DNA from: Clostridiales bacterium
GTDB taxonomy: Bacteria; Bacillota; Clostridia; Christensenellales; UBA1242
Length of the DNA stretch: 64,000 bases
Assembly: GCA_015055815.1 (NCBI GenBank)
Contig: SVHM01000002.1
Span: 7,520 to 71,519, forward strand
Reading direction: 5' to 3'
The notes under the pieces are model-generated. The model did no database searches. It was not told the DNA's origin and was given only the letters and a program-made list of their open reading frames with translations. How positions within the stretch are numbered: the first letter of the stretch is position 1; every line of letters starts with the position of its first letter. Positions 17,994 to 57,611 of the stretch are shown here, one piece after another. A program made the translations under genes and the position numbers.

Positions 17994-20900
17994 TTAGGAA
18001 AGCGGACTTAAAGAATATGCACTTTCCCGAATAGTAGGTTGAGTATTGAAACTTATTAAATAGTCTCTATATCCATCTCCAGTCTTATCCGTCAAGCCAT
18101 CCTTCTTAAACCAAATATTTACGCAATTTTTTTCACCATTTTCGTCTAATGCCACACATGTTGCATCGGCAATACTATCAGAGCCTCTAAATGTGATATC
18201 TAAAGACGATGTATACCAAGAATCTTGATAGAACAAACCATTACCTTGATATTTAGATATATCTATCCACTCAGTAACATTAAGCCATGCATCCTCGTTT
18301 GCCATTTTTAAAGCCCTGCCAATACTAAAACCACAATTATCAAACATTGCGTCATCACTACTTGCCAAATAACACACTTTATATATTTGTATTTTGTAAC
18401 TATCGTCCTTATCTTTATTTTTCAACCAATCATACATAAATGTGTATGTTTTTTGACATGCAGCCGAGCCGTCAACTTCTAATCTTTCACCAGAAGAATT
18501 AAAAATATTTCCAGTATTCTCACCTTCATAATATTGATTACCAGGATTTCCATCACCAATAATTCCACCAACAATTGCTTCACCTACAAGATAAGTAACT
18601 CCATAATACTTGTTATCACTTAAACCTACTGCATTATATTGCAAAAACCTGTAAATACCATTTGAAGCATCATTTCTCCAGTCGCCTTCATTAGTTGACA
18701 TTAAAGCACTTCCCGCCTGACCAATCATTCCACCAACAGTATATCCTTCAATTTGCTGATCTTTATTAGTTTGACTAGCTCCGACTTGACATTTATAGAA
18801 ATTCATTACACTACCATGTGTATCTGGAGCAACTTCTCCAATTATACCACCTGCAATATGGTTGTCTTCCTTTGTAGTAAGTCCAGCTTTAATTAATCGT
18901 GAATTAACTTGAATATTAATAAAATCTATTCTATTAAATGCAGATGTCCAACCAATAACACCACCACAAGCACCATTGTTTGAATAAATACTTGAATCAA
19001 TAATTATTGCATCTTCACTATCACCGAACTGAGCATATCCATACCCCAAACTATGAGTTCCTATTTCTTGAGTTAATGTTTTCTTACCCTCTTTATCATA
19101 TGTCATAGCATTATTCTTCATTTCGTCTGTCAAGTTTTTATAGCTATTATCTAACTTGCCAATTAAACCACCTGCAAACGAACCACCTCTAATAGTGCCC
19201 GATGAAATCGTTGTTTGACGAATTACAATTGAAGAGTATTCAGAATGCCCTATTACACCACCAGCAATCTCTGTACCCTCAATAACACCTGTTATTTCCG
19301 ATGGAGAACTACTTGCTTGATGTCCAATAGTTATAGAATTCCTTTCTAGTATTCCAACATGTCCACCTGATATGTTAGAATACATTCTAGTATTAACATC
19401 AACATTTACAATAGTTAACGCTGATCTTTCACACAAATAACCTGCAATTCCACCAGCCGCTACTCGAGCAGTAATATTACTTGAAATTGTAGTATCTTTG
19501 ATTGAAGATACAGTTGCTTGTTGTAAATCACCAAATAGTCCACCAACATAAGTCACCTTATAATCATCATTTTCTACACTAGTCATAGATATTACACTGT
19601 TAATTTCTGACAACGTTATACTAACAATTTTTGTAATTAGTTTTCCAACCAATCCCCCAGCGTATGATGTGGTTTTATCTTTATTATTTACATTATATTT
19701 CTTATATGCTTCAATATAATCAACTCCAAGATAAATATCAGAAAGCTCTTCAATAAGAACAACTTGTCTGATAGTTAATTCACCAAATACACCACCAATA
19801 TTCATACCTGTCATAGTTGTAATATTCTCTGAGTAATTTTTATCAGCATATATTTTATGAAGTTTTTCACTATCATCAACATCTTTATTATTTATCATAC
19901 ATGACAATTCAGGCGATAAATTATTATCTAAAGCAACCCTTCCTATATATCCAGCTACAACATCTTCCGATTTAATATTTGCTTTAACATATGAATTATG
20001 AATAGAAATTCTTAAATGCTTTTTAGCATCACCTATAATACCACCTGCTAAATTTTTACCTTGAACAGAAGCATCAAGTACGGCAGTGTTACTAATATCG
20101 CTATAGCCACCATTATTGGTTTCATTTCCATCTTCGTCTGTTGGAATATAATTTATTGCAACAATACCACCAGCGATACCACTTTCATCTATATCTTCTG
20201 TATCACTGTCATCTTGCATTATAGCTGTAATAATTCCACTATTTTGACAATTATCAATGTTTGTATTTTCATACTCATTGACACCAATAATTCCACCGGC
20301 ATACTGCGTGTTTTCAGTAAAATCATCTTCTTCTAATTCATAATCGCCTACACTTCCAAAGTTTTTAGAATATTGAATCAACAATAAAGGATACTCATCT
20401 TTATTTTGATATTCTTCTCCTAAATACTCAACTTTGCCTATAATACCACCAGAAACGTTACCATTAATAATAGTATTGTTTTCATCATTTTCTGTAGAAT
20501 AATAGAAATTATTATCATTGTTTTGCTCTTGCAAACCATTAATCATATTTTCTAGAGTATAGTTATCATTACCCAATAATACCAATTCGCCAACTATACC
20601 ACCTGTTACTTTTCCACCTATTATTGAAGATTTGTTTATTATACAACCATCGTAAAAATATGAAGTCTCTATACATACATTACTATATAGTCTTCCAAAT
20701 GATCCACCAGCAATTAAGTTAATATTGCTTGTATTTGTATATTCTCCATCAGTTACAACATTAAACAATCTTATTATTGATGGATCAGCCGTATCTTCAC
20801 CTACTTGCCCAATTAAGCCCCCATATAATGCAATATTAGAACCTGTTGCTATTCCATGAATTGTAAGTTCAACAAGACGTCCTTCATTAGAAATTACTTT

Positions 20901-26900: not shown

Positions 26901-29900
26901 ATCTACATAGTCTTTGTTTGAAATCTCTACTCTTCCTATAATTCCACCCAATGAATTATATAGTGAAGAAATTTCACTATGTTGTAAAGTTCCATTTTCA
27001 GCATAAACTTCATAGCAAACTTCAATTGTATTAGAAGTATAACAGTCTACAATGTTTACACCATTATTTACAAATCCAATCATACCACCAATATTTGCAT
27101 TGATTTGTTCATTTTCTCTAGGTTCACTACGTGAAACATTTAGCTTAATGCTTCCATCAGCAAATGACTGGCTAATTGTTTTCATGTTATCGGTATTACT
27201 ATAATTATTTAAGTAACCTACAAGTCCACCAGCATTGATATTTAATGATGATTGGTCATCCGCTACAATTTCTAATGTTCCATTATAATAAGAATTATTT
27301 ACGGCAGTATCAGTAGCCTTTCCTATAAATCCACCAACATTTAATTGAGTAGAGTCTCCAATGTTAGTAGTAACTTTAATAATATTAGAAACTGCTTTTG
27401 TGTAAGTTCCACAATTTGTTGAACCAAACACACCACCAACGTTAATAATAGCATTGTCTTTTTCTGTAATACTAGTAGTTAACATAGGAATATTAGCAAC
27501 ATTGACAGGTGCAGGAATTGTATTATGACCTACACCGCTAAGTATAGCACCTACTGTACCTGCAATATTTATTGTAGAATGAGTTTTATTCATGCTCGAC
27601 ATGTGTGATTTGTCGTTATCATGAGTAATCTCACCCATGCCACAATAATAGCTTAATCCGTCACCAAATTGTAAATCACCATTGAAGTTTGTACCAATTA
27701 ATCCAGCATAACCACCGATACCAGCAATACCAGAATTAATTATGTTACTTGATACATATACAGATTTGTTATTATACTTAAACTTGCTTAATTTTACATT
27801 AATATTATTTATGTTAAACTTAGTTGTAGTAATTTCGTTTTGTTTACCTTCAACAATTCCAAATACACCACCAACGCCTAACATTTCATAAGAAACTTTG
27901 CTATCGCTTAGAGCTTCTAATTTAACATCTAATATTGATGTAGGAGTTGTTATATTTTCGTCTATAGATATATTATTTATTTCTGAGTCATCAAAACCAA
28001 TAACTTTACCAAACAATGAACCAACGGCTATTGTATCATAAAGTTCATTTTCGCCATAAGCTATATCAACTTTTATGTTTTGATTTGTAATTGTAACAGT
28101 ATCTAATCCTTTACCAACAGCAATTGAGCCATATCCACAAATACCACCAACATATAATGACAAGTTATTAATACCTGTGATATCTTTTTCTGAGTTTGTG
28201 TTATCTACGTCACCAACAACTATAGTTGGATTTGTTATTGTTAATTCGGAAATTTCTAAGCTTTCTGCATAACCACCAACAACACCTATGTATGATGCTG
28301 AGTTTTTAGCAATTATTTTCTTGCCACTAGTAAATGTAATTGAAACATCTTTAATCTTATTAGTAGCAAATCCCCTTGAATAAGCATAACCAAATATTAC
28401 GCCACCAGCAGAATTAATACCGCTATTAACTTCTATGTCGCCATCAACAACAAAATTAATACCTTCAATTGTTGCACCTTTAATTGCTGAGAATAAGCCT
28501 ACGTTATTACCTGCCATACCTTTAATCGTAATAGTAGTTGCAGTACCTTTTTTCAAAGTACCAGTAAATGGATTACCAGTTGAAAGTAAAGGTAAAGATA
28601 CTTTATCACTTGGAATAGCAATATTTTGATCTAATATGAATGTACCATAAGGATATTCATATACTTTTAACAAGTCTTCTGCTGTATTAACATGAATGAT
28701 TGGTTCTGTTAATTCCATTTCAAATACTGGGAATATTGGATTTTGTTTAGTAGTATCATCAGAAGCATCTACTTTGTAATATCCCCAAACTGACGATCTC
28801 CAGAAGCTATCATTGAAAATATCTTGCGATGTTGCATTTCTTTGAGCAATTAATCCAGTTGAATATGTTCCATCACTAGTTGAAATTGTAATATCTTTAA
28901 TTTCTTGTGTTTCGCCCTTTGATACTGTATCTGTATCTGTACCATTCTTAATAGCATTAAGAATTTTAATAGCATTAGCATGATTATATGTTTTACCTAG
29001 AATTTCTTGTAAAGTTCTACTTGAAGAATATGTTCCAAGTCTAGAGAAATGAGCAACATCATCAATTGCTATAGCATTTCCGTTTACACTTAATGTTATA
29101 TAATTACCACTAAATACGTTACCTATATTACTAGCTATTACAACTGGAGTTGCAGTTGTATTGTTATTTGCAGTTGAAATAGTGGTTATATATTTGCCAT
29201 TTTCAATATTGGTATTAGAAATACCAGGTGCTGTAGTTGATATATTACCTATTTCACCAATAAGTTCAAATTTATCAAAACTATCACTTGAAGAAGAAGC
29301 AAGACTTTCGTTAATTGAATTAAATGTATATGCAGTAATTGTATACATGTCTTCTTTTAACATTCTACTATTAAAATCATTAACATGAATGATATTAAGA
29401 TCTTTATCGTCACCTTCTACATTTTTGCAATTTACCCAGTAACCGACAAGACTTCCGATATTTGCAAAATCATCTGATTTATTAACAACATATCTATCTA
29501 TATTCAAATGCTCTTTCTTCCAGATATTAGAAGCAACAATTGATGTCATGCTTAGAGATGGAGCATCTGCATCATTAAAGAATTTTTTGTAGTTACTATT
29601 TGCATCTATCTCACTATCTTCAATAAACAACTTAAACATTGGTATTTGTTCAGTTTGTACAGTGTCAAAGTTTTCAGCATAATTAGTATTGATACCAATT
29701 ATACCACCGACACCATAATATGCATAAACATCACTAGTAGTATAAACGGTAGATAGTTCACCACCAATATTAGCACCAATAATTCCACCAGCATACATCG
29801 AATTAATATTTATTACATTCACCCTATTGTAACAATTTTCAATTCTACCTTCTTGGTTTAGACCAACCAAACCACCAATGAAATGAGCATTAGCAGAGAA

Positions 29901-42517: not shown

Positions 42518-42545
42518 CAATTATTAATATTTAGTTTGCATAGTA

Positions 42546-45500
42546 CTAATTATACCTTGAAAAACAAACAACTTGGTATCTCCCTGGAACACCTTCCACT
42601 TCTGTCAATTGACCATAATTATTTGCGGAATTACTAAATAACAAAGTATGCACTTTACCATTATAATCAAATTGTATTTTATACTGATCAACCATACATC
42701 TTATTAAAGTCCCACAGTATGGCCCATTTTTATCACCACAAAATACATATAGAGAATTAGACATATACAGTTGTACACTATTCAATTCTTCTTTAGCATT
42801 ATTATTTGTAACAAAGATAGTTAAATTACTTAGCGCAACATTATAAATAACACCAATATTTTGAGTAATAGGAGTACATTCATTAAAATTTTGATTTTGA
42901 AAATTAAAATTAATATTCGCAATTAAACCGCTATTAACCTGAATAAACACATCAAATCCATTGTTATCAGTTATTTCCATGGTAACTTTTTTAACATCAT
43001 CCCCTAAAGGAATACCGATAATTGCAGAGTTTTCAGATATAACCATAAATGTAAAATCACTTGGCAATTTCAATTCAAACGAATCACCTATTAACAGGAT
43101 AATCGAATTTTTTAATTCAGACCTATAATAATAATCTTTCTCTAAACCTTTAAATAATTCAATCAATTGTGTATCGTTATATATCAACTTAACAGTCGCA
43201 CCATCATAAGTTGGTATTTCACTCTCACTATTTATCTCTAATGAATATGTAAACACATAATCACTATCAATATTATCGGGATCTGACATTTGCGAATTTA
43301 ACTCACTTATTGATTCTAACAAGGTTCCATTAACAAGCAATTTAACCCTAAATACATGTTCTTGTAATGGTAGAACAAAACCATATTCTCCATTATCATA
43401 TTTTTCCCAAACTTCATTATCTTTAGATATTTTTACTAATTGACTAATATTGCCTTCATCATTTAATCTATTAAATTTAGAAACTTCTTGTGGAACATAT
43501 ATCACATAATTTTTACAATAGCCAGAGTTAGCATTTTTTACCAAATATAGTTTATATTTAGTTTCTCCGCTATAACCTATTGTCGCAGAATATACATCTA
43601 TAATTTTACCCGTGTTGTTAGATGAGAATGCGTAAATAGTCTTACAATTAGCATTAACAGCCACATATGAAGAAATACATTTATAAATATTACCAGCATT
43701 TCCAACAGTAAACGCAGAAGTAATATTTCCATCGCTAGTAGCATTACCATTAATATCAATAAGCATTCCCGAATTTCCATATACAGAAACACCAACAATT
43801 AAGCCATTTGAACTATTAGTGTTACAGAATGCCAAATCACCACTCAAATCTATTCTTAAATTAGATATTACACCATTATTAGTTCCAATTATATAACTAG
43901 TTACAGCCACACCAGAACCACTAGTCGAACCAGCAGTCAATGTAGAGAAGCTGATTACATCATTATTAATCTGCGTCCTACCAGATATTATAGTCTTTTC
44001 ACCAACTGAAGCAATACCTGACGGAACATTAGCACTTTCATTGATTACATAATACTTATTATCAGTAATATTATTTCCACTAACACTAAACATCTCTAAA
44101 TTAAACCTATAATCTGTAAAGTTTAATTCAGTTAACGAATCAGTAAACGCCTTAGGAACAAACACTTTTACGTTACCACAAGCAATAGTATCCATTTTGT
44201 AATTATTGTCATCATCGTAAGCAAATAATGAAGTAGAAGTATTAGCTTCAATAGTTAGCTCTACAATTTCAGTTGTTTCAGGATTATCAGTACTAAAATA
44301 CAAATCAGCCAAAGCAAATGTATTAAAGAAACTATCATTACTTTCATAATTATTAGTAGCAAATTCTTGAGCAAAATAAACATTTTCAATAGTCGTATCA
44401 GTTGTATATTTAGAAATAGCATATGTGTTTTTACCACTCGGAATTTCAGTATATACAAATCCGTTCGTTAAAGTATCCATACGTTTAGAATCGTAAGTAA
44501 CACCAGCCATGTAATTTGTATTACTTGTCGAATGACGACCAACACCATCACCATCCGTTATAGTTGCTAGAACAGAGAAGCCTTGCATGGTTATAAATTG
44601 ATCTCTATGTCCCAATATACCACCACAGTATAACATACTATTCGATAGAGCATTAATCATTCCTGCAACAAGAACATTAGTTACAGTAAACGATTTTTTA
44701 GCATATCCCACAACACCACCAACATACAATTTACATTGCACATTAGCAGTAATTTCAGAATTTGCATAAATAGTATTTCCAATAAAATTTTTAACATATC
44801 CAATAATACCACCAACATAAATACCATTACTACTATTTGCAGTTGAAGATACACCAATATCTGCAAAGTTACTAACATTAGTTAATGATAATGATGATGT
44901 ATTATCACTATCTACAACACGTCCTACAACACCACCTATATATGATTGAGCAGTAATGTTTGATACTGTAATACTACATTCACTATTAACAGTTGATTGG
45001 GTAATATTAACATTAAAAGCCTTACCAACAAATCCACCAATTGATACATATGTTTCATCATCAGTTGAAGTATTACCAGACAACACTATTTTCATCTTAT
45101 TTACTGAATTTGCAACACTGATGATATCGCTATTATCTTGATTACCAACAAACCCACCAGCATTTACTGTCGACTTGCTACTAGTTATTGACAATTTGTT
45201 AATATTATTTGTCACATTATATAATGATGACCCTGTTGTACTACCAACCATACCAACATTATATTCACCATTAGCAACCACCAATTTAATATCTGACATA
45301 TCAGAATCAACAGTAACATTATTTAAAGAACTTGATGCAAAGTTACCAGCAACAATTCCAAAGTTTTTACCATCTTGAATGGATATATTACCATCATATA
45401 CCGTAACATCTTCACCAATCTCAACATTATTAACTACCCTAACATTAACATCTGCAATTTGCGTTGTTTGAACTACACCAAACACAAGTCCAACATTAAC

Positions 45501-48500
45501 TGCACCAATGTTAATGTTATTGGATATAGCTTTATTTCCCATATTAATAGTAATATTACAATTATCAAACAACGACCTGTTTAATGTATTTACAAATAAG
45601 CCAAAGTTATCTGTAGTTACATTACAATCACCATTACTATAGTTAATTATAATGTCAACATTTTTCCATGTAACGTTATCTATTATATTGAATATAGAAT
45701 GTACAGTCGAAGAATTTATTATATTAAATTCAATTCTTGGATTTCTTCTAGCAGAAATTCCTTCACCTGATAATACTTGAGCATTACTTACCTCAACTTG
45801 ATTTCCAATCAATGAGAATTTAATAGAGTCCCTTATCCAAACATCTCTTTTATCTTCAATCTCAATAGTTATATCACCAGTCAATATATGTGTCGCATCA
45901 CTCTTTGTATTGATAGCATTAATAAATTGATCTTGTGTACTTATTTCCTTAGTAGTATCAACACTTGATTTAAATGCTGGAAGATATTCATCCATTACCC
46001 AATTGCTACTACCATCAATTAGTACAAATTCAGTATTGATACCATCAGTAACTTGAGAGCCAGCAAATCTACTTTTTCTATCATATTTTTCATCAAATAC
46101 ACTTCTTGTAAACTTATTAGTTTTTGAAGTACCGCTTGCAACAAGTTCAGAATATGCACCCATTAACTGTTCTGCATATTCTTGTGCAGTAAAGATTTGT
46201 GGGAAACTCATTATGTCATAATAACCAGATTTTGTAGCAGAATATTGCAATGAGTCCTTATTTGTAGTTACTTCGGAAGACATTTCGGTCGATTCTTCTA
46301 CAGGCCTGTAAGCATATCTATAGCTACCAATCGACCTATTACCTATACCAGAAATACTTATAGTAAATGGATCTTTTTCATAGCTATCAACTTTATTTCC
46401 ATCCAAATAACTATTTGTTGATGAAGTATATCTACCTAGTGTATTACTAAATACAACACCTGTTATATTATGATCTTGATCAACTATATTAGTAATATTA
46501 GTAGTAGTAACATCTATAAAATCAGGATAAGTAATTGTAGTGACAATTTCATCGTCAACTTCATTACTTTCAGTTACTTCATAAACAACCTTTCCAATAC
46601 TTGAGCCTACTAAATATTTAATATTACTATTAGTATAAGCAAAATCTCTATTATAATGCTCATCATCATCCGCTACAGTTGGAGTAATTGGGGCCAAATT
46701 ACCAATTTCAGGCATTTTTATGTAGAAATTATTGTAATTTCCGTTACCAATATAATATCCTACTTGATTTGAATATAATCTCTCAGTTATTTTATTTCTA
46801 TAATTAATTTCGTTATCGTCTTTGCCAGCATTATTCCAGTCTGTCAAAGCAACAACTCTATCCATATTTAAAGTCGTTCCTAATTGTAAACCAATTGAAC
46901 CACCAATTATTCTTCCCGAATAAACAGAACCAGTAGAATAACAATAACTAATTTTATTTACCGCTGTTACAATTTCATTATCAACATAACCAACTAACCC
47001 GCCTGCTATAAAGCTATTTGGATTAATAACGTTAACTTTTGAGTAACTATTAGAAAGTTCAGCATTTTTCATATAACCTACAATACCACCAACGGCAATA
47101 TTGTAAATTGAAGATAGTTTGAATAAATCATTATATCCACGTTCTCTATCTTTATCAGAAAGCAACATAGAGTCATCTATTCTATCTTGAAGCGCCTTAT
47201 CATGTTCTATTGATGAATAGTCAATTTCTGCATTATACAATTCACCAACAAGTCCACCAGCAATATTGAAAGACTTGATTGACTGTCCACCAGAAACTAT
47301 AAATTTAGAAGTTTCAACTTTAGTAGTTACATTTCCAATTTTTCCAACAAATCCAAACAAGCCACCAGCAATATCCGATTGTTGTATTTCAAAGTTACCC
47401 TTTACTGTCACATCATAAACTTCACTATCTTGTAGTACACCAGCAATACCACCAGCATAAGAAACTCGACTATCATTACTTCCATCATAGTGAACAAATG
47501 TATACATTTCTGTATTACCTGCAACATTTGTACTATAAGTTTTATAATCATGACTTACATTCGACGAGAAGTTAACACCATTTTTAACACTTGAATATCC
47601 TAGGCTAATAGCAATATTTTCAACTGTAATGTCTGAAATGTTACAATTATCTATCTTACCAGCCAACGCACCAGCCATATTTTTAGCTGTGATTACCTTT
47701 CCATTACCATTACCACTTCCAATAATATGAACATTGTTTATTGTAGAATTATTAGTTATCGTTCCCGCCAAAATTCCACCATACGTAACATCACTACCAG
47801 ATGAGTAACCAGAAAGTGTAATTGTCAAGTTTTTAATAGTTCCGCCTTGGATACTACCAAATAAGCCAAACTTATCAATATTTAGTTCTTCTTCTTCGCC
47901 AACATTTAAACTTAAATTCTTAAGTGACATTCCATTTCCATCTAGAACACCACTGAATATAGTTTGGAATATATAAGAATTTTTACATTTTGTAGCAGTA
48001 GTTAAACCTGTAAAATCTAAATCTTTAACCATTCTGAAATGCGTACCTGTAATAACTTCTCTACCAGCATTAGGATTGGCATTATTAATAGGGTCAGAAT
48101 AATTAAGAATATAATTATTGAAGTCTAATGCACTATCTAAAATTATAGGATTTACAGCTAAACCATATGAATATGTAGAATGGTACTGATAATAGTACAT
48201 ATATTCAGTCATTGTACTATCTGTACCAGTTGTTCCGCTATCAGAATTATCAATAAGAAGTGTTCTATGTGAGAAGGTTTCTTTTTCACATGATTCTAGT
48301 TTTGGTAAATATGTACCCATCTTCCATTCGCCATTACCTGCATCACCAGTCGCAAACTTAAATCCATACCAATTATTTGCTGGAGCAAATAAATTCTCAT
48401 TTCCACATTTTAGCATTCCAACAGCTTTTTCGGAAGAAACTGTCGCTTCATTACCCAATATTAAGTAATAACAATTTGTATACGTACCGGAATTATTAAT

Positions 48501-51500
48501 ATTAGCATTTTCAATACCAGTAAACACACCATATGCATTTGAAGAATTCTTTTTAGTACCAGCAGAATAACTATTTTCAATAGTACCAGTATTAGTATTA
48601 TTAAATACGAATGCTCCAGAGAATGCTCCCCTATGTTCTATATAAACATTTGCATAACTATTTAAAATCTTACCAGCATTTTCATAGACTAGACCACCAA
48701 CACTACCCCTTGATTCAATCATTGAGATATCTTCAACGGCTCTATAACTTTCAATAGTTTGACCTTCTGCATAACAAGAAGTTATAAGTCCACTACTACT
48801 ATTATTTGCAACAAAACCACCCGTCGCACTCTTATTTCCAAGTGGATACAAGTTATATATACCAACACCTTTTACAAAGCTATTAGATATAATCTTTGTA
48901 TTTTGAGAAACCAAGCCACCAATAACATTACCACTTACAATTGCAAATGGATAAACATTTATTGAAGGTATACTTGCTTGATTTTCATTTGAATTTGAAT
49001 CACTTGGTGCTGGTGCTATTTTTATAATACTACCATTACTATCCGTTTTACTACTAATACCAGCAAAAGAATTAGTAATATATCCATTATTTACAGCAAC
49101 TAAACCTGCAATGTTATGATTATAATCAGTTCCCAAATCATCTCTTTGTTTTACTAAGACGTGAAAATATTCACTTTCTGAGTTGTTGGCACTAGCATTA
49201 TATGTATTAACAACTTTAACATTAGTAATTGTACCGTTATTTTCACCTGCCAATACCCCAAAGTTAACATTCTTAATGTAACTCAAATCAATATTAGATT
49301 GATTATGAACATAAGTTTCAGCTTTTGAATTTTCAAGTATTGCTTCGTCATTTAAGAATTTAGTTTCAGTAACCAATAATTCAGATATATCTATTGTAAT
49401 ATTCTTAAGCAATGTATGCTCAGATATTGTAGAGAATATACCTGCATTTGCTTTTTCCTGATTTCTAAATTTGTCCATATTGAAGCTACTTACTTTTAGG
49501 ACATATCCATTTCCATCAAGCATTCTACAATTAATATCCATTGGTTCCCAATCGATAAGATTAATATCATTTAGAAGTATATAGTTTCCTTCACCTTCTT
49601 TTGAGTTACAATACTTAACCAATTCTTCTTGAGTTCTTATTGGAGTTGGATGGTCTTCTGTAGAATTATCTTCTACTGTAATTATAATATCAATTACTTT
49701 TTCATAAACGTTACCAGTATCACCCAATTTTAACATACCAGTATAAACTTTTTTACCATCTACTTCAATTTCAGAATAATCATAGAAATACTTAAATTGC
49801 AATCTAAATTGATTATTTTCACTTACAATCTTACCTACTAAAGAAGCATAACTATAAGTATATCCATCTTTTTCTTCTGATGAAGTTATCAACTTAACAT
49901 TATTATATGTTGTATTAAATGTGTCCATCTTTTCATAAAGTTGATGTTCTGCGTCATAACAATACAACCAATATTCACTAACATCACTATTTAAAGATAT
50001 TATACTACTTGTCGAATTAGAAATTTCAGTTCTAGCAAGCTGATATTCAAATTTATTCTTATTTGACATTGTGCCAATACTTTCATCTTCAAGAGCTCTT
50101 TTATATTTTTCAACTTCTTCAGTAGTACCAATCTCAATAGGTTTATACTTAATAGTTAAAGCAATATTAAAGCCTTCCGCTTGATTAATTGTTATATATG
50201 CTTTTGAATAGTCATTATTCTTGTAAGAAGCTTCATTATCAATAGTAATATAATCTATTTCAAACTCAACTATTTTAAATGTTAATTCTTCAGTTGCAAT
50301 TTCAACTTCACCAAGTACAACTTCACTTGCATAGAATTCAATAGTAGCTTCACTTACTGTACACTCTACATCAACACATACAAAATATGAATTTATATAT
50401 GATATGTCTAGTACACCATTTGCTTTTTCTAATTTATTACCGTTATATCTAGCAACAAAAATCTTATCAATATCTTTACCGCTATTTGTTGAAATTGAAT
50501 AGTAAATATTATTAGTAATATTCTCAATGTTAATGTCAAGTTGTTTTTTAACACCCCTACCAATAACATTTCTTTCTACATCAGTTTCACCTTTTAATGC
50601 TACTGACAATTCAGGCAATTCTTGAACTGATAATATTTTTTGGTTTTCATAAGTTTTTGTAGCAATATTATTTTTCACTTCATAAGAATGAACAATAACT
50701 GGAATTTGACTAGTCTTTGGAAGTCTACCAATCATACATAGCCTTATATAATATGTATTACCATAATTAATTATATTATCATTACTTGAAGTTTGTCTTG
50801 CAAGTCTTATACCAAAATACTTACCACCATGATCTCTAGCATCACCCAAATTTTGAATGTCATAATATTTACTTAGTATTCCCGTATCAGCATCAACAAC
50901 ACCACTAACTTGTTTAAGTATAATATCATTTTTAAATTCAATTGGAATAAGTACTTCTACATAACTTGAATTATTTAACTTCTCGTCTAAAGTAAGTTTC
51001 ATAATTCCATTTTCATTATAAACCATACTACTACTTGTATTTGTTTCAGTTAAAATAGTATATTCTCTATTACTTTCTTGAGTTCTTGGATAATAGTCCA
51101 TATAAATTCTAGAAAGTTCATTTGGAGCAATAGACCAATTAACCAAGCTATAAAGCCCTGTATTTGTTTCTGACATAACTGTCATTTTGCAATTTATATT
51201 ACTCAAATCATACATATGTGCATTGTCAATATAGAAAGTTTCATTAAATACTACTTCGTATTCAATTGATACTTTAAACATTCCATCAGACAATGCTTCA
51301 TAAGTATATGGCTTAAATTTGAATGTAAACAATGCATAATTAAATTCACCCTTAGTACCCATGGTTACCACATTACCAGAAACGGTATTATCGCTTCCAT
51401 CTGCACCAACAATGTTTTGTGGTAAAATGAATTTCTTATTTGTAAATATGAAAGATAATTCATTTAGATTAGTAGTACCTAAGCTATATGTTGTTGTAGG

Positions 51501-54500
51501 ATTTGTTCCTTCAGTTACAGTTGTTGTAATGTTATTTGTTACAATTGATAAAACTGCTTGTGTAGAACTAGAAACAGAAACCACCGAACTATCCAAATCA
51601 TTTACAAGTTCAATTGTTCTTCCTGTAACATCAAATGTAAATGATTTAATCATGCTTTCATCTTTCATAATATACGAATTTGGATAACTAATACCTTCAT
51701 ATGTACCATTATAAGTTACATCTCCCAAATTCAATATTGGAACTAATTTAAAGTTAACCATTGTACCAATTTTACATTTAGGAATGATATCTAATTGTTT
51801 ATTATTAAGTAGTATTACTCCGCCATCATTGACAGTTACACCATTTACAATAATGTTTCCTGTATTTGTATATGTATTATCAATAGTAACACCGCATGAT
51901 ACTAGGTGGAATAAATATTTAACATCATTAGCAGTTGAATTATCGTCACCAATGTAGAAAGTATTTCTTTCTGTTACATACATTGTTTTATTTGCTATTT
52001 CTGTTACTTCTTCATGACTAGAATTTTCTAAATGATAATTACTAGAAATACCATGCATAACTTTAATTAATATCTCAGCTTTAATATCTCTATCTAGATA
52101 ACTACTAATTACTAATGTTGCTTTACCAGCTTTCAAAGGAACGATAGTATTTCCTTGTAATTTAAATACTCCCTTGTCACCATCTTCCAAAATAGACAAT
52201 TCAATTCTATCATTACTCTTTAATTTGAAATTAGTAGCATCAATTGTTTCTCCACGATATGAAACTACAAGAGTACATGTCTTATCGTCATCCCCATCTA
52301 ATTCTTCAGATATGACAATATTGTATACTGGATTTTCTCGAAGAAGCATCAATATCTGATGATGTCTACCATTCTCATCATCATAGTGAATATCATATTT
52401 AAAGGAGCCATCAATACCAACATCAATACCTGTTGCCACAAGGTCATACATTAATTTACCTTTATCATCAATTATGATTGGTAATATCTGATATGTAGTT
52501 TCATTCAAACCTACAGTATTAATCTTATTATTTGTATTGTAGAACCATTTATGATTTTCACTATCATAGGCAACGCTTCCATCAGTAATCTTAGTCAAAC
52601 TATTCTTTATCTCATCGCCTAACAAATTCCCTTCTGAATAAATACCCGCTAAAACAATCTTAGAACTTTCTGTTTTTACAATAAAGCCAACATTGTTATT
52701 AAGAACAGCATATGAATTTGAAATTTTTAGTATTAGCGTTTCTTCACTATTTACCGCACTTACCTGATCGTCTTCTTCATTTTCTTCATTATTTACTATA
52801 GCTAGAACAAATTCTTTATCGATAAATTCAATTGAACCAATAATACTTGCCCCATTTACAACGTCTTTTACTTCAACAAATGTATTTCCGTCTTCAGATC
52901 TATAAATCAAACCTACAGCATAGCTATCTAAAATCTCTACATTTTTATAGCCACCCAACATTAAACCAGTTTTAGCAAAGTTTCCGTCATTTTTAACAAC
53001 GGCAATATCACCATCAAAATAACTTGATTTTATTATTCCATGCGAGTAATTACCAACAATTCCACCTATTTCTGATGTCTTATCAACATTTGCATAAATA
53101 TTACCTAAATAATTATCTCCAATTGTTGAATTGTAGAAACTTCTTACATATGAATAATTAATATTTCCATATGCACTACCAACAATTCCACCAACAATTG
53201 CTTGTGAGTTAGGCGCATCAAGTCTGAAATTGATTTTTTCAATGCCAAGATAATCGTTACCAATATTAACAAAGTAAACAATAGCATGAGTTATATCAGT
53301 AGAAGCAGTACTTTCACCTAGTATACCACCGACCTTTAAAGTATTATTACTATCAGTCTCAACAAGGATTTTTGGACTTGCTGTAACTGAAGAAATATTT
53401 GAAGGTGCATCACTACTTAAACCAACGCAACCACCAAATACACCAACTTTTTTAGCAGTAATCAATGAAACGACTTGTAAATCAGTTAATTGACAACTAT
53501 TAATTCTACCAACTATACCACCCGCAACATATGAACTTCCACAATTTGAAAGTTTAATAACAACGTTTGCATTATCATAAGTTGAGCTAACACCTATTAC
53601 ACGATTATCTGGCAAACCTAAAATTGCAGTTTTTGTAGCATTGCCCACAAAACCACCAATATTAATAGTTCCAGCAGTATTGCCACCAATAACTTCAATA
53701 GTACCAGTTGCCACACAACTATTAATCTTACAGTATGATGTATTATCTACAACTCTAACGCCAGACATGGATGATTGAGATACCCCTCCACCATCTGTCA
53801 ATCCAGCAAATATACCAACATTTACAGTTCCTGTAAACCCACTGTTTAGGCTATTATTGATGACTATTTCAGCATTTTTAATAGTTAGGTATTCTAATTT
53901 TACTTCTACACCTGTTGCAATTTTTCCAAACAAGCCAATATTTTCTACCGCACTAGAATTACTACTAGTTAAATTTTTACGAATTCTTAAGTTTAATATA
54001 GAAGAATAATATGTAGTTTGATCTTTTCCTGTACCACTAACAAATTTACCGCTTAGTGAGAATACCCTTCCCGCTGTATTTGTTAAGTTAATAGGAGTAA
54101 AGTTATTTTTGCTAGACAAATCAATGTCGTTAACTAACACATAATAATTATAATGCCCTTCATTTACATTATTAACCATTCTATCAAAGTCATCTATAGT
54201 TGATATTTCAAATGGATGAGACACCGAGCCATCAGAATATGTAACTCTAACAGTTTGAACAAACATATTACTTCCATTATAGAAGTCAAACCCATCTCCA
54301 CTTTGAGATAACCCTTTTATATTATCTTCAGTTGTAATTACTATGTAGTACTCAGAAGCGCTCGCACCCGGCTTAGGTGTAATTTCAATATATCCAGTAT
54401 TTCCGTTGTTTGTTTGAACTATTTGAGTAGTAAACATTGTAGTTTCAACATCTTGAATAATGGTTAATTTTTTGTTTGTAGCATTAAAATTATTAATTGT

Positions 54501-57500
54501 ATAACCAATTCTTCTTGTACGAATTGAGTCACTTCCACCAACGATTTCTTCATAAATACCTTGTTTGCCTACATCTAATTTAACACCATTTGTTTTCTCT
54601 GGAACAGAAGCTCTAAAAGTTACTGAAGAAGCCACCGTTTCATAGTTAAACTGTCTAACTTTAATGTCAACCTGGAATACAATGTTGTTTGAAGATATTA
54701 TTTCTCTTAAAATGGTTTCTTGACCAATTGTAATGTGATTATTAATAAAGTTCTTTAAATCTTCAGACATAACACATGTGACAACACATTCACCCGTAGT
54801 CTCATTTTTATCAACTCTAAACAAGTCCCCATATTCAAGTGCATATTCATCTGTAGTTTTTTGAGACTTAATCTTTACTTGTTGTCCATTACTATCGTAA
54901 ATAGGTCTTGCACTCATCATTTCATATGAATAAGTTAAAGATATAGCTTCATCATTTGCACTAAATCCTATTTTCATACCTACCCAATCTTTATTAACAC
55001 CAGCATGAGTTAATTTATTAAAGTTGGTTGAAATATGTTTTTCATGCATTTTATTTTTATTAGGGTTAACGATATCATAATATCCCAAATAATCTTGCAA
55101 ATAAATTGTATCATTTACTAGATTTACATCAACTTCCAAGTCTTTGAAGTCTTGAAGAATGTACACATAAAGGACAGCTCTTCTATTTTCTAATTTAATA
55201 GTTTTATTATCTAAACGATAAAATTCATAAGAGATGGTTATTTGAGTTTCACCAGTTTCGCCTTGTGTTGTTAAAATACCATCTTGTAAAGCCACATACC
55301 TATTGTTGCCGATAGATATTTTTACATTCTTGGAAATATCTATTCTTTCACCTTTTAAGAAGTCATAAATTCCCAAACTTACAGAAGAATTTGGATGCAT
55401 AAATAATTTTGCAACCGACTCGTAGTTAATTCCACCAAATTCGCATTTTGCTTTAGGATCAAATGTTTCTGCGTCATCTCCACCATCTTCCAAAGCACTT
55501 GCTCCAGTTGTCCCTTCACCCTCTACTGGCAAAGTGGTATTTGTAACGTAATACAAATATGAATTTGATGTTGACAACATCTCTAATGCCAAAGGAGCAT
55601 CACTATGAAGAGAATAGAATGAAGTCATATAACATTTAATAGTTATACTTTCTTGAAGTTTGTTATGTTTAGCAGTAAATGTAACTTTAAAGTCTTTCTT
55701 CATTGTCTTTAAAGGTTCAACATAATAAACATACCCTTCTTCTTCACTCCACTCATAGTCAATTTTTAAATTTTCTTTATCATATTCGATTGATTGAACA
55801 ACTTTTTGTGGTGTCAATTCAGACTCTAAAGCGAACAATTTAGTTTTTGCACTTGACAAATCTGCCGTATCAATAAATAATGTTTTTTCGTAATTTTCAC
55901 CAAAGAAAGTCGCTAAAGTTTTTTCAAATTTCAATTTAATTGGATAATAAATATACTGAGTTGAAATCTCATCACTCAAAGTATCCAATGAAAATTCTAT
56001 TGCTATATAAATAGTGTTATCTGCAACTTCAGAAAGATCTGAAAATTCGTGTTTTAAGTAGAATACCGACCCGTAACCAAACACAACAGGATCTTCACCC
56101 TTTTCAAGAGAGTCTGCCCCAAGCCTTGCAAAATTAACTGTTTCTTGCATGCCCTTTACATTTAATGTAAGTTTTGACGCCAACTGATCGCTATCAGTTG
56201 CCAAATAATAATTCCAGTTCCTATAAGTACCCGCTTGTATTTCAAGAGCATCACCCAATTGAACATTAAATTCTGCTCCATTTCCAGGATAGTTATCACA
56301 TATCAAGAATGGATTTAGCGATAATTCTTGGTTATTTATATACAAGGTGTTTGGCAAAGAAACAACTTCAAAATTAACAATAATTTCATGTGAAATAGCT
56401 TGCGGATATTCTTTATGTCTAAGTAGGAAAGTATGTGTATATGTACCAGCAAACAAAGATTCAACACTAAATGCGTTCAACTCACCACTTGGCAAAATAG
56501 ATACACACTTACCATGCTTAGGCAAAACAGCCTTAACTTCTTCACCATCAACAATAGATACAACTTCAAAATCAGAAGGATTTCCAGCCTTATATTCCAA
56601 CTTCAAAGCACGTCCAAAATAGTATGATAAAGGAATATTTGGATCAGCAGATAGCCTACCCTTAGCCCCCTGATCAACAAGTTTAACATTGTATTCATAT
56701 TTATCAGAAACAGACGCCAAAACATCTTTTTCATTTTGTTCTTCAAGACTAGACAAAAGTTTTATATCAGTACAATCATTAAGTACCACTACATCAAAAT
56801 ATTTAACAATATCAGAAGTCGTCTCGTCATCATCTGAATATGTAGCACTAATTCTAACAACTTCATCATAAGTAGCTTGTGCATTTTCATCAAAAGACCC
56901 ACTTGATAAAGTCTTTTTAGGATAAGTTACAGGTTGCTCTTTAGACTCAGCATCTAAGTATGTAGAATAAGTTTGTAAAGTTGTACCATTAACAAATTTC
57001 GCAAATTTACCAAATTCCAATTCTTCTTGAGCAACAGAATATTGAACGCCATCACCAGTAGAACCATCTGGAATAACAACGTCAAACTTCAAATTTTGTT
57101 GTGTTGTCTCTTGTGGTTTAAAGTCAATAAACGATTTTACTTCGCTTAAATCGATAGAATCTCCCTTTCTGATTGCCGATATCAAACTGTTTTGTTTGAA
57201 GTCAAAATCATTAAGTTTAACATCAATTATAAACGGAATTTGACATTTTTCACCCCCACTAATAGCAGAGACTTCCAATGTAAAAGGTCCTTTATTCGAT
57301 GGAGAAATTGCGTTAGCTGTAATTTTAGTTTTACCATCACCGATATATTCAGAAGTCGTTGTAATAAAGCCCCTTCCTGCACCTACAGAAACACCCAAAT
57401 CAACATCAGTTTCAGCAGACACTTGAACTTCAAAAGAAACAGATGTGGACTCATAAACCCCATCTCTAACTTCTTCAAGCATTAAATGTATTGGCTCATT

Positions 57501-57611
57501 ACCACCCACTTTCGAAATGGTGACAGAAGCATATGGATCTTCATCTCCACAAGCAACAAAGCCAAAAATCGAACATAGCATTAAACAAAATATTACAAGC
57601 TTCTTTTTCAT
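42546..57611 (-). CDS. Giant surface lipoprotein (5021 aa), a paralog of the 8022-aa protein with about 4 GLUG-type repeat cassettes
   Basis: The ORF is an uninterrupted 15,066 nt. The start is ATG at 57611 with the SD GGAGA 7 nt upstream. The signal peptide is MKKKLVIFCLMLCSIFGFVA|C, with the lipobox FVAC. The architecture and entry motifs match the 8022-aa protein (e.g. HPTPIRTQEELVKY...NYILLNDINLIDWEPMD...LDGNGYVLKVSSF). GGxxG repeats include IGGFVGNA, AGGIVGRI, VGGILGES, VGGIVGSA and IGGIVGNY. Confidence 0.93.
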   Translation of the reverse strand: MKKKLVIFCLMLCSIFGFVACGDEDPYASVTISKVGGNEPIHLMLEEVRDGVYESTSVSFEVQVSAETDVDLGVSVGAGRGFITTTSEYIGDGKTKITANAISPSNKGPFTLEVSAISGGEKCQIPFIIDVKLNDFDFKQNSLISAIRKGDSIDLSEVKSFIDFKPQETTQQNLKFDVVIPDGSTGDGVQYSVAQEELEFGKFAKFVNGTTLQTYSTYLDAESKEQPVTYPKKTLSSGSFDENAQATYDEVVRISATYSDDDETTSDIVKYFDVVVLNDCTDIKLLSSLEEQNEKDVLASVSDKYEYNVKLVDQGAKGRLSADPNIPLSYYFGRALKLEYKAGNPSDFEVVSIVDGEEVKAVLPKHGKCVSILPSGELNAFSVESLFAGTYTHTFLLRHKEYPQAISHEIIVNFEVVSLPNTLYINNQELSLNPFLICDNYPGNGAEFNVQLGDALEIQAGTYRNWNYYLATDSDQLASKLTLNVKGMQETVNFARLGADSLEKGEDPVVFGYGSVFYLKHEFSDLSEVADNTIYIAIEFSLDTLSDEISTQYIYYPIKLKFEKTLATFFGENYEKTLFIDTADLSSAKTKLFALESELTPQKVVQSIEYDKENLKIDYEWSEEEGYVYYVEPLKTMKKDFKVTFTAKHNKLQESITIKCYMTSFYSLHSDAPLALEMLSTSNSYLYYVTNTTLPVEGEGTTGASALEDGGDDAETFDPKAKCEFGGINYESVAKLFMHPNSSVSLGIYDFLKGERIDISKNVKISIGNNRYVALQDGILTTQGETGETQITISYEFYRLDNKTIKLENRRAVLYVYILQDFKDLEVDVNLVNDTIYLQDYLGYYDIVNPNKNKMHEKHISTNFNKLTHAGVNKDWVGMKIGFSANDEAISLTYSYEMMSARPIYDSNGQQVKIKSQKTTDEYALEYGDLFRVDKNETTGECVVTCVMSEDLKNFINNHITIGQETILREIISSNNIVFQVDIKVRQFNYETVASSVTFRASVPEKTNGVKLDVGKQGIYEEIVGGSDSIRTRRIGYTINNFNATNKKLTIIQDVETTMFTTQIVQTNNGNTGYIEITPKPGASASEYYIVITTEDNIKGLSQSGDGFDFYNGSNMFVQTVRVTYSDGSVSHPFEISTIDDFDRMVNNVNEGHYNYYVLVNDIDLSSKNNFTPINLTNTAGRVFSLSGKFVSGTGKDQTTYYSSILNLRIRKNLTSSNSSAVENIGLFGKIATGVEVKLEYLTIKNAEIVINNSLNSGFTGTVNVGIFAGLTDGGGVSQSSMSGVRVVDNTSYCKINSCVATGTIEVIGGNTAGTINIGGFVGNATKTAILGLPDNRVIGVSSTYDNANVVIKLSNCGSSYVAGGIVGRINSCQLTDLQVVSLITAKKVGVFGGCVGLSSDAPSNISSVTASPKILVETDSNNTLKVGGILGESTASTDITHAIVYFVNIGNDYLGIEKINFRLDAPNSQAIVGGIVGSAYGNINYSYVRSFYNSTIGDNYLGNIYANVDKTSEIGGIVGNYSHGIIKSSYFDGDIAVVKNDGNFAKTGLMLGGYKNVEILDSYAVGLIYRSEDGNTFVEVKDVVNGASIIGSIEFIDKEFVLAIVNNEENEEDDQVSAVNSEETLILKISNSYAVLNNNVGFIVKTESSKIVLAGIYSEGNLLGDEIKNSLTKITDGSVAYDSENHKWFYNTNNKINTVGLNETTYQILPIIIDDKGKLMYDLVATGIDVGIDGSFKYDIHYDDENGRHHQILMLLRENPVYNIVISEELDGDDDKTCTLVVSYRGETIDATNFKLKSNDRIELSILEDGDKGVFKLQGNTIVPLKAGKATLVISSYLDRDIKAEILIKVMHGISSNYHLENSSHEEVTEIANKTMYVTERNTFYIGDDNSTANDVKYLFHLVSCGVTIDNTYTNTGNIIVNGVTVNDGGVILLNNKQLDIIPKCKIGTMVNFKLVPILNLGDVTYNGTYEGISYPNSYIMKDESMIKSFTFDVTGRTIELVNDLDSSVVSVSSSTQAVLSIVTNNITTTVTEGTNPTTTYSLGTTNLNELSFIFTNKKFILPQNIVGADGSDNTVSGNVVTMGTKGEFNYALFTFKFKPYTYEALSDGMFKVSIEYEVVFNETFYIDNAHMYDLSNINCKMTVMSETNTGLYSLVNWSIAPNELSRIYMDYYPRTQESNREYTILTETNTSSSMVYNENGIMKLTLDEKLNNSSYVEVLIPIEFKNDIILKQVSGVVDADTGILSKYYDIQNLGDARDHGGKYFGIRLARQTSSNDNIINYGNTYYIRLCMIGRLPKTSQIPVIVHSYEVKNNIATKTYENQKILSVQELPELSVALKGETDVERNVIGRGVKKQLDINIENITNNIYYSISTNSGKDIDKIFVARYNGNKLEKANGVLDISYINSYFVCVDVECTVSEATIEFYASEVVLGEVEIATEELTFKIVEFEIDYITIDNEASYKNNDYSKAYITINQAEGFNIALTIKYKPIEIGTTEEVEKYKRALEDESIGTMSNKNKFEYQLARTEISNSTSSIISLNSDVSEYWLYCYDAEHQLYEKMDTFNTTYNNVKLITSSEEKDGYTYSYASLVGKIVSENNQFRLQFKYFYDYSEIEVDGKKVYTGMLKLGDTGNVYEKVIDIIITVEDNSTEDHPTPIRTQEELVKYCNSKEGEGNYILLNDINLIDWEPMDINCRMLDGNGYVLKVSSFNMDKFRNQEKANAGIFSTISEHTLLKNITIDISELLVTETKFLNDEAILENSKAETYVHNQSNIDLSYIKNVNFGVLAGENNGTITNVKVVNTYNASANNSESEYFHVLVKQRDDLGTDYNHNIAGLVAVNNGYITNSFAGISSKTDSNGSIIKIAPAPSDSNSNENQASIPSINVYPFAIVSGNVIGGLVSQNTKIISNSFVKGVGIYNLYPLGNKSATGGFVANNSSSGLITSCYAEGQTIESYRAVEDISMIESRGSVGGLVYENAGKILNSYANVYIEHRGAFSGAFVFNNTNTGTIENSYSAGTKKNSSNAYGVFTGIENANINNSGTYTNCYYLILGNEATVSSEKAVGMLKCGNENLFAPANNWYGFKFATGDAGNGEWKMGTYLPKLESCEKETFSHRTLLIDNSDSGTTGTDSTMTEYMYYYQYHSTYSYGLAVNPIILDSALDFNNYILNYSDPINNANPNAGREVITGTHFRMVKDLDFTGLTTATKCKNSYIFQTIFSGVLDGNGMSLKNLSLNVGEEEELNIDKFGLFGSIQGGTIKNLTITLSGYSSGSDVTYGGILAGTITNNSTINNVHIIGSGNGNGKVITAKNMAGALAGKIDNCNISDITVENIAISLGYSSVKNGVNFSSNVSHDYKTYSTNVAGNTEMYTFVHYDGSNDSRVSYAGGIAGVLQDSEVYDVTVKGNFEIQQSDIAGGLFGFVGKIGNVTTKVETSKFIVSGGQSIKSFNIAGGLVGELYNAEIDYSSIEHDKALQDRIDDSMLLSDKDRERGYNDLFKLSSIYNIAVGGIVGYMKNAELSNSYSKVNVINPNSFIAGGLVGYVDNEIVTAVNKISYCYSTGSVYSGRIIGGSIGLQLGTTLNMDRVVALTDWNNAGKDDNEINYRNKITERLYSNQVGYYIGNGNYNNFYIKMPEIGNLAPITPTVADDDEHYNRDFAYTNSNIKYLVGSSIGKVVYEVTESNEVDDEIVTTITYPDFIDVTTTNITNIVDQDHNITGVVFSNTLGRYTSSTNSYLDGNKVDSYEKDPFTISISGIGNRSIGSYRYAYRPVEESTEMSSEVTTNKDSLQYSATKSGYYDIMSFPQIFTAQEYAEQLMGAYSELVASGTSKTNKFTRSVFDEKYDRKSRFAGSQVTDGINTEFVLIDGSSNWVMDEYLPAFKSSVDTTKEISTQDQFINAINTKSDATHILTGDITIEIEDKRDVWIRDSIKFSLIGNQVEVSNAQVLSGEGISARRNPRIEFNIINSSTVHSIFNIIDNVTWKNVDIIINYSNGDCNVTTDNFGLFVNTLNRSLFDNCNITINMGNKAISNNINIGAVNVGLVFGVVQTTQIADVNVRVVNNVEIGEDVTVYDGNISIQDGKNFGIVAGNFASSSLNNVTVDSDMSDIKLVVANGEYNVGMVGSTTGSSLYNVTNNINKLSITSSKSTVNAGGFVGNQDNSDIISVANSVNKMKIVLSGNTSTDDETYVSIGGFVGKAFNVNITQSTVNSECSITVSNITAQSYIGGVVGRVVDSDNTSSLSLTNVSNFADIGVSSTANSSNGIYVGGIIGYVKNFIGNTIYANSEITANVQCKLYVGGVVGYAKKSFTVTNVLVAGMINALSNSMLYCGGILGHRDQFITMQGFSVLATITDGDGVGRHSTSNTNYMAGVTYDSKRMDTLTNGFVYTEIPSGKNTYAISKYTTDTTIENVYFAQEFATNNYESNDSFFNTFALADLYFSTDNPETTEIVELTIEANTSTSLFAYDDDNNYKMDTIACGNVKVFVPKAFTDSLTELNFTDYRFNLEMFSVSGNNITDNKYYVINESANVPSGIASVGEKTIISGRTQINNDVISFSTLTAGSTSGSGVAVTSYIIGTNNGVISNLRIDLSGDLAFCNTNSSNGLIVGVSVYGNSGMLIDINGNATSDGNITSAFTVGNAGNIYKCISSYVAVNANCKTIYAFSSNNTGKIIDVYSATIGYSGETKYKLYLVKNANSGYCKNYVIYVPQEVSKFNRLNDEGNISQLVKISKDNEVWEKYDNGEYGFVLPLQEHVFRVKLLVNGTLLESISELNSQMSDPDNIDSDYVFTYSLEINSESEIPTYDGATVKLIYNDTQLIELFKGLEKDYYYRSELKNSIILLIGDSFELKLPSDFTFMVISENSAIIGIPLGDDVKKVTMEITDNNGFDVFIQVNSGLIANINFNFQNQNFNECTPITQNIGVIYNVALSNLTIFVTNNNAKEELNSVQLYMSNSLYVFCGDKNGPYCGTLIRCMVDQYKIQFDYNGKVHTLLFSNSANNYGQLTEVEGVPGRYQVVCFSRYN
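57549..57611 (-). other. Lipoprotein signal peptide and lipobox of the 5021-aa protein
   Basis: The n-region is MKKK, followed by a hydrophobic core and the sequence F-V-A-C21. The Cys codon is at 57551..57549. Confidence 0.75.

Follow-up and report, generated by a model that had tools for sequence, protein, structure and literature searches.

What are the two very long open reading frames (ORFs) that stand directly upstream of rpoB in a Clostridiales bacterium of the order Christensenellales (assembly GCA_015055815.1, contig SVHM01000002.1), and what might their products do at the cell surface? The stretch analysed here, called the window below, comprises 64,000 nucleotides (nt; positions 7,520 to 71,519 of the contig), and its coordinates are counted from its first letter. 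Both frames are read from the minus strand, one behind the other in head-to-tail order. Gene A (42546..57611), the upstream member of the tandem, encodes 5021 amino acids (aa), and gene B (17994..42062), which directly precedes rpoB, encodes 8022 aa; both start with ATG and would specify giant lipoproteins. We find that A and B are paralogous, natively encoded and genuine genes, and we favour the view that their products probably form an N-terminally lipid-anchored, extended and fast-diversifying surface fibre of an adhesin-like kind.

Reality of the two frames

Translation of A and B gives no internal stop. At the window's GC content of ~30%, a stop is expected about every 11 codons in a random frame, and the chance of a stop-free run at that composition is ~1e-201 over the length of A and ~1e-322 over that of B. 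In the five remaining frames of 17994-57611 (39.6 kb), all open stretches are short, as an earlier sequence-only reading of the window had stated, although the longest of them is 122 aa and not the 108 aa given there. The codon usage of A is close to that of the flanking housekeeping genes (relative synonymous codon usage r 0.84; third-position GC content, GC3, 0.17), and because both giant genes match those neighbours in codon usage and GC3, they look native. That the frames are real and under selection, which had been proposed from their length, is borne out by the stop-free odds, the lack of internal stops and the collinear orthologues described below.

Both genes carry the expression signals attributed to them at the outset, at the level of consensus and pattern matches for the promoters and terminators. 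Shine-Dalgarno sequences (GGAGA for A, GAGGGA for B) stand 7 nt ahead of each ATG. A is preceded by a promoter-like site at 57687..57715 (minus strand; TTGACA-17-TAAAAT, an 11/12 sigma-70-like match) and followed by an intrinsic-terminator-like hairpin at 42491..42518 (minus strand; a 12-bp stem and then a T run). For B, the segment 42063..42172 (minus strand) holds the Shine-Dalgarno sequence, the 5' untranslated region (UTR) and a promoter-like site (TTGACT-17-TATAAT at 42167..42139, 11/12), all conserved across species, and a hairpin with a T run lies at 17939..17972 (minus strand). The 110 nt before the B start codon are 75% identical to those at L083, a related locus with both genes, even though the proteins are 23-31% identical. 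Within this region is a perfect 27-nt block, TATAATTTTATTATTATATAATAATAA, which contains the palindrome TTATTATATAATAA and which Tandem Repeats Finder marks as an AT-rich imperfect repeat. Such conservation in the face of protein divergence argues that the B promoter or 5' UTR is constrained and that B is expressed; the 27-nt block could act as an operator, or else as an element in the RNA. The A-B spacer also includes a ~240-nt stretch (~42235-42480) whose coding strand is rich in G and T; this stretch does not occur in the equivalent L083 spacer and has no Rfam match.

The concern that repeats had collapsed during assembly is not supported. When the DNA was compared with itself, the longest direct repeats were 30-60 nt at ~70% identity and encoded the motif vGGivGy. 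No tandem arrays were found inside A or B, and self-BLAST of the two proteins returned no internal repeat, with weak similarity at the level of individual rungs only. The window's exact RpoB and RpoC proteins are present on more than 20 public contigs, and the product of the gene upstream of rpoB is exactly 8,022 aa on four retrieved contigs from different samples (JGI 3300022661; ENA ERZ27248370, ERZ27248446 and ERZ27248314). All four match the window at 100% identity over the last 9.4 kb of B and the spacer, and within-species copies are identical; one of these contigs may be the window's own source, and the remaining ones are independent assemblies. Since repeated DNA is absent and the 8,022-aa call recurs on four other contigs, misassembly is unlikely, and short of contradiction by long reads we consider it excluded.

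Predicted anchor, stalk and cassettes

Each protein begins with a signal peptide and lipobox, which read MKKKLVIFCLMLCSIFGFVA followed by C21 in A (FVA before C21; 57549..57611, minus strand) and MKIWNKILSFVVLMFVTVCGVTA followed by C24 in B (VTA before C24; 41991..42062, minus strand). Both N-termini match regular expressions for a PROSITE PS51257-type and a Gram-positive lipobox pattern. All 16 orthologue fragments that begin at residue 1 retain the lipobox cysteine, with [AG]-C at positions 9-27 (e.g., FFAC-G, VTAC-D, LAGC-G and FVGC-G), and the N-terminus of A is weakly homologous to these same cysteine-retaining N-termini. The pattern matches and the retained cysteine uphold the original assignment of lipoprotein signal peptides to both genes. 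The accompanying claim that neither protein has an LPXTG motif, a transmembrane anchor or HExxH was confirmed as well: the signal peptide is the sole hydrophobic segment in A and in B, no LPXTG-like motif occurs in the last 100 aa, no hydrophobic segment was found at either C terminus, and HExxH occurs nowhere in the two proteins. Judging by their N-termini, A and B would be lipidated, and they are probably exposed at the surface.

Past its signal peptide, B is predicted to continue as a tandem array of immunoglobulin (Ig)-like beta-sandwich domains that could serve as a stalk (residues 22-600; 40263..41999, minus strand). An AlphaFold2 model of this segment, built on an alignment of B N-terminal orthologues from an exhaustive search, shows consecutive beta-sandwich domains at a mean predicted local distance difference test score (pLDDT) of 80, with 272 residues at 90 or above. 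Foldseek places the S-layer proteins SbsB, EA1, SbsC and Sap at the top, followed by cadherins and titin, all at probability 1.0 and all with low template modelling scores (TM-scores) of 0.14-0.24. The exhaustive HMMER search, which compared B residues 1-1200 with 1.84 billion representative proteins, gave 24 matches only, 16 of which aligned from residue 1. No match to B residues 1-1500 was returned by a word-indexed protein search, and Pfam found nothing in the N-terminal and middle regions of orthologues (L081, L083, P0127 and P0128). The model was made at the N terminus of B only, and there it agrees with the beta-rich N-terminal region that had been anticipated.

The feature that links A to B, and both to distant relatives, is a GLUG-type cassette. 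Residues 2628-3600 of A (46812..49730, minus strand) form the conserved core of two GLUG-type beta-helix cassettes, as judged by homology, Pfam, profile searches and AlphaFold2, and they are paralogous to a conserved double cassette at residues 2937-4140 of B (29643..33254, minus strand). The A core is ~31% identical to this part of B and to relatives, and it is the sole region clearly common to A, B and distant relatives. The core cassettes show the canonical GLUG head (NPxPI…YILxNDIxL…DGNGYxIxI…GLFsxI…IKNL) and then GGxvG rungs; a regular expression for the cassette head, DGNGxxI, finds one clear head per protein only.

Further clusters of rungs are spread along both proteins. In A, a vGGivG (GLUG-like) cluster at residues ~1319-1550 (52962..53657, minus strand) was found by motif and by a hidden Markov model (HMM) of the rung, with a sub-threshold Pfam Glug match, and another at ~4152-4350 (44562..45158, minus strand) is similar to B 6279-6487. 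The first cassette of B, with its rung cluster, occupies residues ~1093-1700 (36963..38786, minus strand; rung scans and sub-threshold Pfam Glug). Several more clusters are found by rung scans and Pfam Glug in its C-terminal half (~4900-7850; 18513..27365, minus strand), which can be aligned with P0001 and with the rpoB-proximal ORFs of relatives. The rung HMM counts ~16 GLUG-like rungs in A and 52 in B, all clustered, and 0 in shuffled controls. By our estimate, GLUG-type regions make up about one quarter of A, and in B their share is at most one half; the sequence outside them has no relatives beyond the clade.

Family searches detected these cassettes unevenly. Pieces of 2,500-2,700 aa gave nothing above the Pfam cut-off and one sub-threshold Glug match, while pieces of 560-900 aa gave Glug at 28.0 bits in A (3019-3578) and 24.1 bits in B (6425-7324) against a cut-off of 20.5. 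The family thus passes in 2 of 20 sub-fragments, with six further distinct sites (seven overlapping rows) below the cut-off. Short queries were needed, and long ones also suppressed true A-B matches in phmmer. Pfam additionally reported a weak Peptidase_M26_N match in the conserved core of A, and NCBIfam returned nothing for either protein. A profile of the core retrieves 169 proteins, nearly all of which carry PF07581 and/or PF05342 and several of which are named "GLUG motif-containing protein". Searches of PDB sequences gave nothing significant, whether the query was A, either half of B, the cassette profile or one of the two C-terminal tips; the sole match, to VWA2 at E 0.006, was not trusted.

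The AlphaFold2 model of A 2628-3600 has a pLDDT of 68, rising to 85-92 in its cores, and Foldseek relates it to right-handed beta-helices only. The best E-values belong to alginate lyases of polysaccharide lyase family 6 (PL6), at ~9% identity, TM ~0.2 and a root-mean-square deviation (rmsd) of ~30 Å. The "putative IgA1 protease" BACOVA_03286 (3N6Z) matches at probability 1.0 with TMt 0.46, the pneumococcal and Gemella IgA1 proteases (6xjb, 6xja and 7uvk) also match at probability 1.0, and antigen 43 and phage tailspikes are found too. This model and its matches agree with the earlier expectation that the cassettes fold as right-handed beta-helices. The GLUG assignment itself is made mainly because of the profile searches, the stronger Glug matches in orthologues and the similarity of fold, and on these grounds A and B do belong to a broad, uncharacterised GLUG beta-helix superfamily. 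The proposal that both proteins consist of repeated GLUG cassettes stands in part, since Pfam Glug is marginal, whole-protein scans are blank and the cassettes cover only some of each protein.

Orthologues beside rpoB

A search with RpoB yielded 80 species-representative genomes at 58-95% RpoB identity, all of them uncultured gut metagenome-assembled genomes publicly labelled Clostridia, Clostridiales, Christensenella sp. or Christensenellales. Their hosts include humans (Hadza, Nepal), goat, roe deer, yak, rabbit and reindeer, among others. Where the full 10-kb upstream flank was available, 25 of 45 loci have a frame upstream of rpoB that stays open for over 2,700 codons; these frames reach the edge of the locus and stop a few hundred bases short of rpoB. 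One is present at each of the eight loci whose RpoB identity is at least 92%. Similarity to B or A was detected by tblastn at 24 loci. Direct similarity to A or B is seen at 22 of the 25 loci with a giant ORF, and one truncated locus is additional.

The best-preserved relatives retain both genes or long collinear parts of them. Two loci, L083 and L084, hold the whole A-B tandem with a 240-nt spacer that contains a terminator and a promoter, which argues that some of the clade, at least, inherited the two genes in this order from a common ancestor. At L083, the A orthologue is 31% identical over 2413 aa (A residues 2588-4790), and the B orthologue is 31% identical over 3175 aa and 23-31% identical over B residues 1-4090. 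The metagenome scaffold L081 follows B collinearly, starting at residue 2452 and continuing to ~7000 and beyond (34% over 3,216 aa, then P0001), its gene call being split by a scaffold gap of Ns. The giant frame at 25 of 45 loci and the tandem of L083 bear out the expectation that orthologues would adjoin rpoB.

The giant protein diverges far faster than the products of neighbouring genes. Between the window and its closest species, RpoB is 93-95% identical, RpoC and EF-G ~90% and a 334-aa neighbour 47-52%, and B is 25-29% identical, over ~1,550-2,850 aa in close rpoB relatives. When the relatives' orthologues are compared with one another, L002 and L020 form the closest pair, at 55% identity. 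Because the orthologue alignments stay collinear over thousands of residues, these values point to rapid divergence on a retained scaffold rather than replacement by unrelated genes. In public records, the family appears mostly as fragments under the label "hypothetical, partial". A scan of genome contigs with A as the query found no close relative, using exact 8-mer seeds that are too strict for such divergence.

The B orthologue of L083 contains an in-frame TGA (L083:11243-11245), present at the same site in L084, where the sequence reads SANYV, stop, TKDILITAENW. At the equivalent site (residues ~1113-1122; ~38697-38726, minus strand), B of the window reads LNYEIVNDITLTSPW. Past the TGA, the L083 frame stays open for another 2,846 codons or more. 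The stop is seen in two metagenome assemblies, which are independent of each other and differ at only 4 of 17,106 bases; it might represent a nonsense or off-state allele, or it could be read through.

The C-terminal ends, which would be the distal tips, differ among orthologues. The last ~670 aa of A (42549..44561, minus strand) and the last ~170 aa of B (17997..18512, minus strand) have no recognisable domain, and the final ~230 aa of A do not align to the L083 orthologue. We scanned the last 1,500 aa of 26 orthologues and of A and B (28 pieces) with Pfam. Glug was found in 9 of the 28 (best E 9e-42; the B piece itself gave no match), Listeria-Bacteroides repeats (Flg_new) in four (L017, L018, L021 and L034), NlpC/P60 in three and CHAP in one. 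NlpC/P60 ends the rpoB-proximal giant ORF of L020, L025 and L026 (C-terminal ~150-300 aa) and occurs in P0001 of L081 (18700-20185), where CHAP stands alongside it; neither domain was found by Pfam in A or B. These differing C-termini indicate that the distal ends are modular and species-specific.

On the minus strand, B is followed by rpoB (13720..17445), rpoC (10100..13708), rpsL, rpsG, fusA and tuf, and the rpoB-rpoC block (10100..17445) has its own promoter-like site at 17602..17574. No rplL (L7/L12) was detectable within 10 kb upstream of rpoB at any of the 80 loci, with or without a giant gene, so the rplJL-rpoBC linkage seems to be absent from the whole group. The position of rplL was consequently uninformative for dating the insertion of the giants. 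Three minus-strand ORFs (8144-8422, 8504-9508 and 9615-9893) stand between rpoC and rpsL, inside an otherwise conserved rpoBC-str region; their products are a HicB-like antitoxin (92 aa) and two uncharacterised proteins of 334 and 92 aa. Genes for SpoIIID and an M23 peptidase upstream of A fit a Firmicute of sporulating ancestry. A PP-loop ATPase gene (57819-58547, plus strand; Pfam ATP_bind_3, E 2e-14) is divergent from A and is overlapped by a 155-aa GTG ORF (57743-58210, minus strand) that has no family match and is probably spurious. Across the whole window, the sole Rfam match is a tRNA at 63908-63982 (plus strand; 46.8 bits), with none in the spacers around A and B, and ARAGORN gave no tRNA in the window.

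Possible functions of the giant proteins

In the reading that we favour, Sec would export each precursor, the cysteine (Cys21 in A, Cys24 in B) would be lipidated and signal peptidase II would cleave before it, tethering the mature N terminus to the outer face of the cytoplasmic membrane. The string of Ig-like beta-sandwiches in B would then act as a stalk through the wall, and the GLUG-type right-handed beta-helix cassettes, together with further all-beta regions, would extend the molecule to a length roughly of the order of at least 100 nm. A species-specific C-terminal tip would be displayed at the far end, so that the scaffold would be retained while a binding or effector tip was swapped between species. 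The structural statements are those that the data support; we infer lipidation, surface exposure, how long and how extended the molecule is, and a role in adhesion or in contact between cells.

Several observations weigh against such a fibre. With the GLUG regions and the modelled N terminus set aside, ~70% of A and ~50% of B remain, and no domain is identifiable there. Confidence in the beta-helix model is moderate (pLDDT 68, TM-scores 0.2-0.46), and beta-helices occur also in polysaccharide lyases. The ~670-aa tip of A and the ~170-aa tip of B gave nothing significant in Pfam, NCBIfam or the PDB, which leaves no ligand or activity to name, and the peptidoglycan hydrolase ends of some orthologues make an enzymatic or antagonistic role possible. 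Neither lgt nor lspA is present in the 64-kb window. Given the TGA of L083 and L084, full-length B may also be dispensable in some lineages.

A and B might instead be the main self-assembling envelope layer of the clade, a coat resembling an S-layer but held by lipid rather than by SLH or CWB2 domains. The N-terminal array of B finds its best structural matches in SbsB, EA1, SbsC and Sap; promoter-like sites close to consensus precede both genes, which adjoin highly expressed operons; the B 5' UTR is conserved; and rapid divergence is typical of S-layer proteins. The likeness to these fast-evolving Bacillales surface proteins is generic, however, since TM-scores of 0.14-0.24 describe Ig-like arrays at large and cadherins and titin score alike. 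Pfam scans of A and B found neither SLH nor CWB2 nor any other S-layer domain; with masses of 560-900 kDa, both exceed known S-layer subunits by far, being 5-10 times larger than the Bacillales examples, and they contain beta-helix cassettes. Moreover, the giant gene is missing at the rpoB site in about half of the related genomes. We regard a coat as unlikely.

Equally hard to favour is the idea that the fibre places a catalytic module against polysaccharide, or against the peptidoglycan of neighbours or of the cell itself, after the manner of the giant cell-wall-degrading proteins proposed for predatory bacteria or of polymorphic toxins with swappable C-termini. The NlpC/P60 ends of L020, L025, L026 and L081 (the last with CHAP), the variable C-termini on a conserved scaffold and the top Foldseek E-values of PL6 alginate lyases all speak for it, and giant proteins have been linked to cell-wall degradation (bioRxiv 10.1101/2023.11.21.568195). 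No hydrolase, lyase or toxin domain was detected in A or B themselves, however, and the PL6 matches, at ~9% identity, TM ~0.2 and rmsd ~30 Å, reflect a shared fold only. Nor does an immunity-like gene follow either ORF, as each is succeeded by a terminator and B then by rpoB.

Among known systems, GLUG proteins (PF07581) and the Peptidase_M26_N region of streptococcal IgA1 proteases (6XJA, 6XJB and 7UVK; also 3N6Z) share the cassette signature and the predicted beta-helix with A and B. Unlike those proteases, A and B lack the M26 metalloprotease domain, carry a lipid anchor signal in place of LPXTG, are 4-6 times longer and are GLUG-like only in part. An M26 IgA1-specific metalloprotease (ZmpA/B/C type) was ruled out, there being neither HExxH nor a Peptidase_M26_C match. 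Staphylococcus aureus Ebh, SiiE, LapA and the Bap-type adhesins are megadalton, all-beta, extended surface proteins with Ig-like modules and a presumed role in adhesion; they consist of many near-identical tandem repeats and are held by a C-terminal transmembrane or LPXTG anchor or by type I secretion system retention. A and B have no BLAST-detectable internal or DNA repeats and bear an N-terminal lipobox instead, and a repeat-built adhesin of this type was ruled out by the absent repeats and the different anchor.

The sequence-only reading had placed B among the largest bacterial proteins, which is overstated, as reports exist of 10,000-30,000-aa proteins in gut Clostridia and of up to 85,804 aa elsewhere (bioRxiv 10.1101/2023.11.21.568195). 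The same paper describes Oscillospiraceae proteins made of RCC1 only and Omnitrophota giants with many transmembrane segments and SecA-like domains, and it mentions no GLUG, lipoprotein anchor or rpoB linkage. A and B resemble its giants in their gut Clostridia origin and beta-rich surface modules, and some orthologues do so in their Listeria-Bacteroides repeats and hydrolases. An Omnitrophota-type giant was ruled out, with one hydrophobic segment in each protein and no Pfam match to a divergent SecA DEAD helicase. Our literature search found no description of an rpoB-linked giant lipoprotein family. What is new is a clade-restricted, non-repetitive, probably lipid-anchored, rpoB-linked and fast-evolving giant family with swappable tips.

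A bolder picture, which we offer as a long shot, would make the rpoB-linked giants the defining envelope organelle of their uncultured gut clade: a lipid-anchored fibre of at least 100 nm whose species-specific tip attaches to other microbes or host material, with NlpC/P60 or CHAP tips, in the lineages that have them, breaching the wall of a partner. It would amount to an epibiotic or predatory contact apparatus of Firmicutes with an evolutionary origin independent of the Omnitrophota giant genes, with the palindromic 5' UTR as a regulatory switch. As for the reading of the frames as repeat misassembly or non-functional remnants, the metagenomic origin, the nearly blank Pfam and NCBIfam scans and the in-frame stop of one relative are outweighed by the stop-free odds, the absence of repeated DNA, the identical 9.4-kb 3' end and 8022-aa call in four other assemblies, the collinear orthologues in more than 20 species and the conserved signal peptide and promoter, and it is effectively refuted.

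If they are expressed, A and B, which alone occupy 39 kb of the chromosome of a low-GC gut bacterium, probably dominate the cell surface as it is met by the host, by phages and by neighbouring microbes. A non-repetitive giant protein with an N-terminal lipid anchor is also a little-studied architecture. The family is nearly invisible to routine annotation, and because it combines this with a conserved position, fast divergence and interchangeable tips, it could serve as a marker of strains or species. It is likewise a candidate for the factor that sets niche or partner specificity among widespread, uncultured Clostridia of the human and animal gut.

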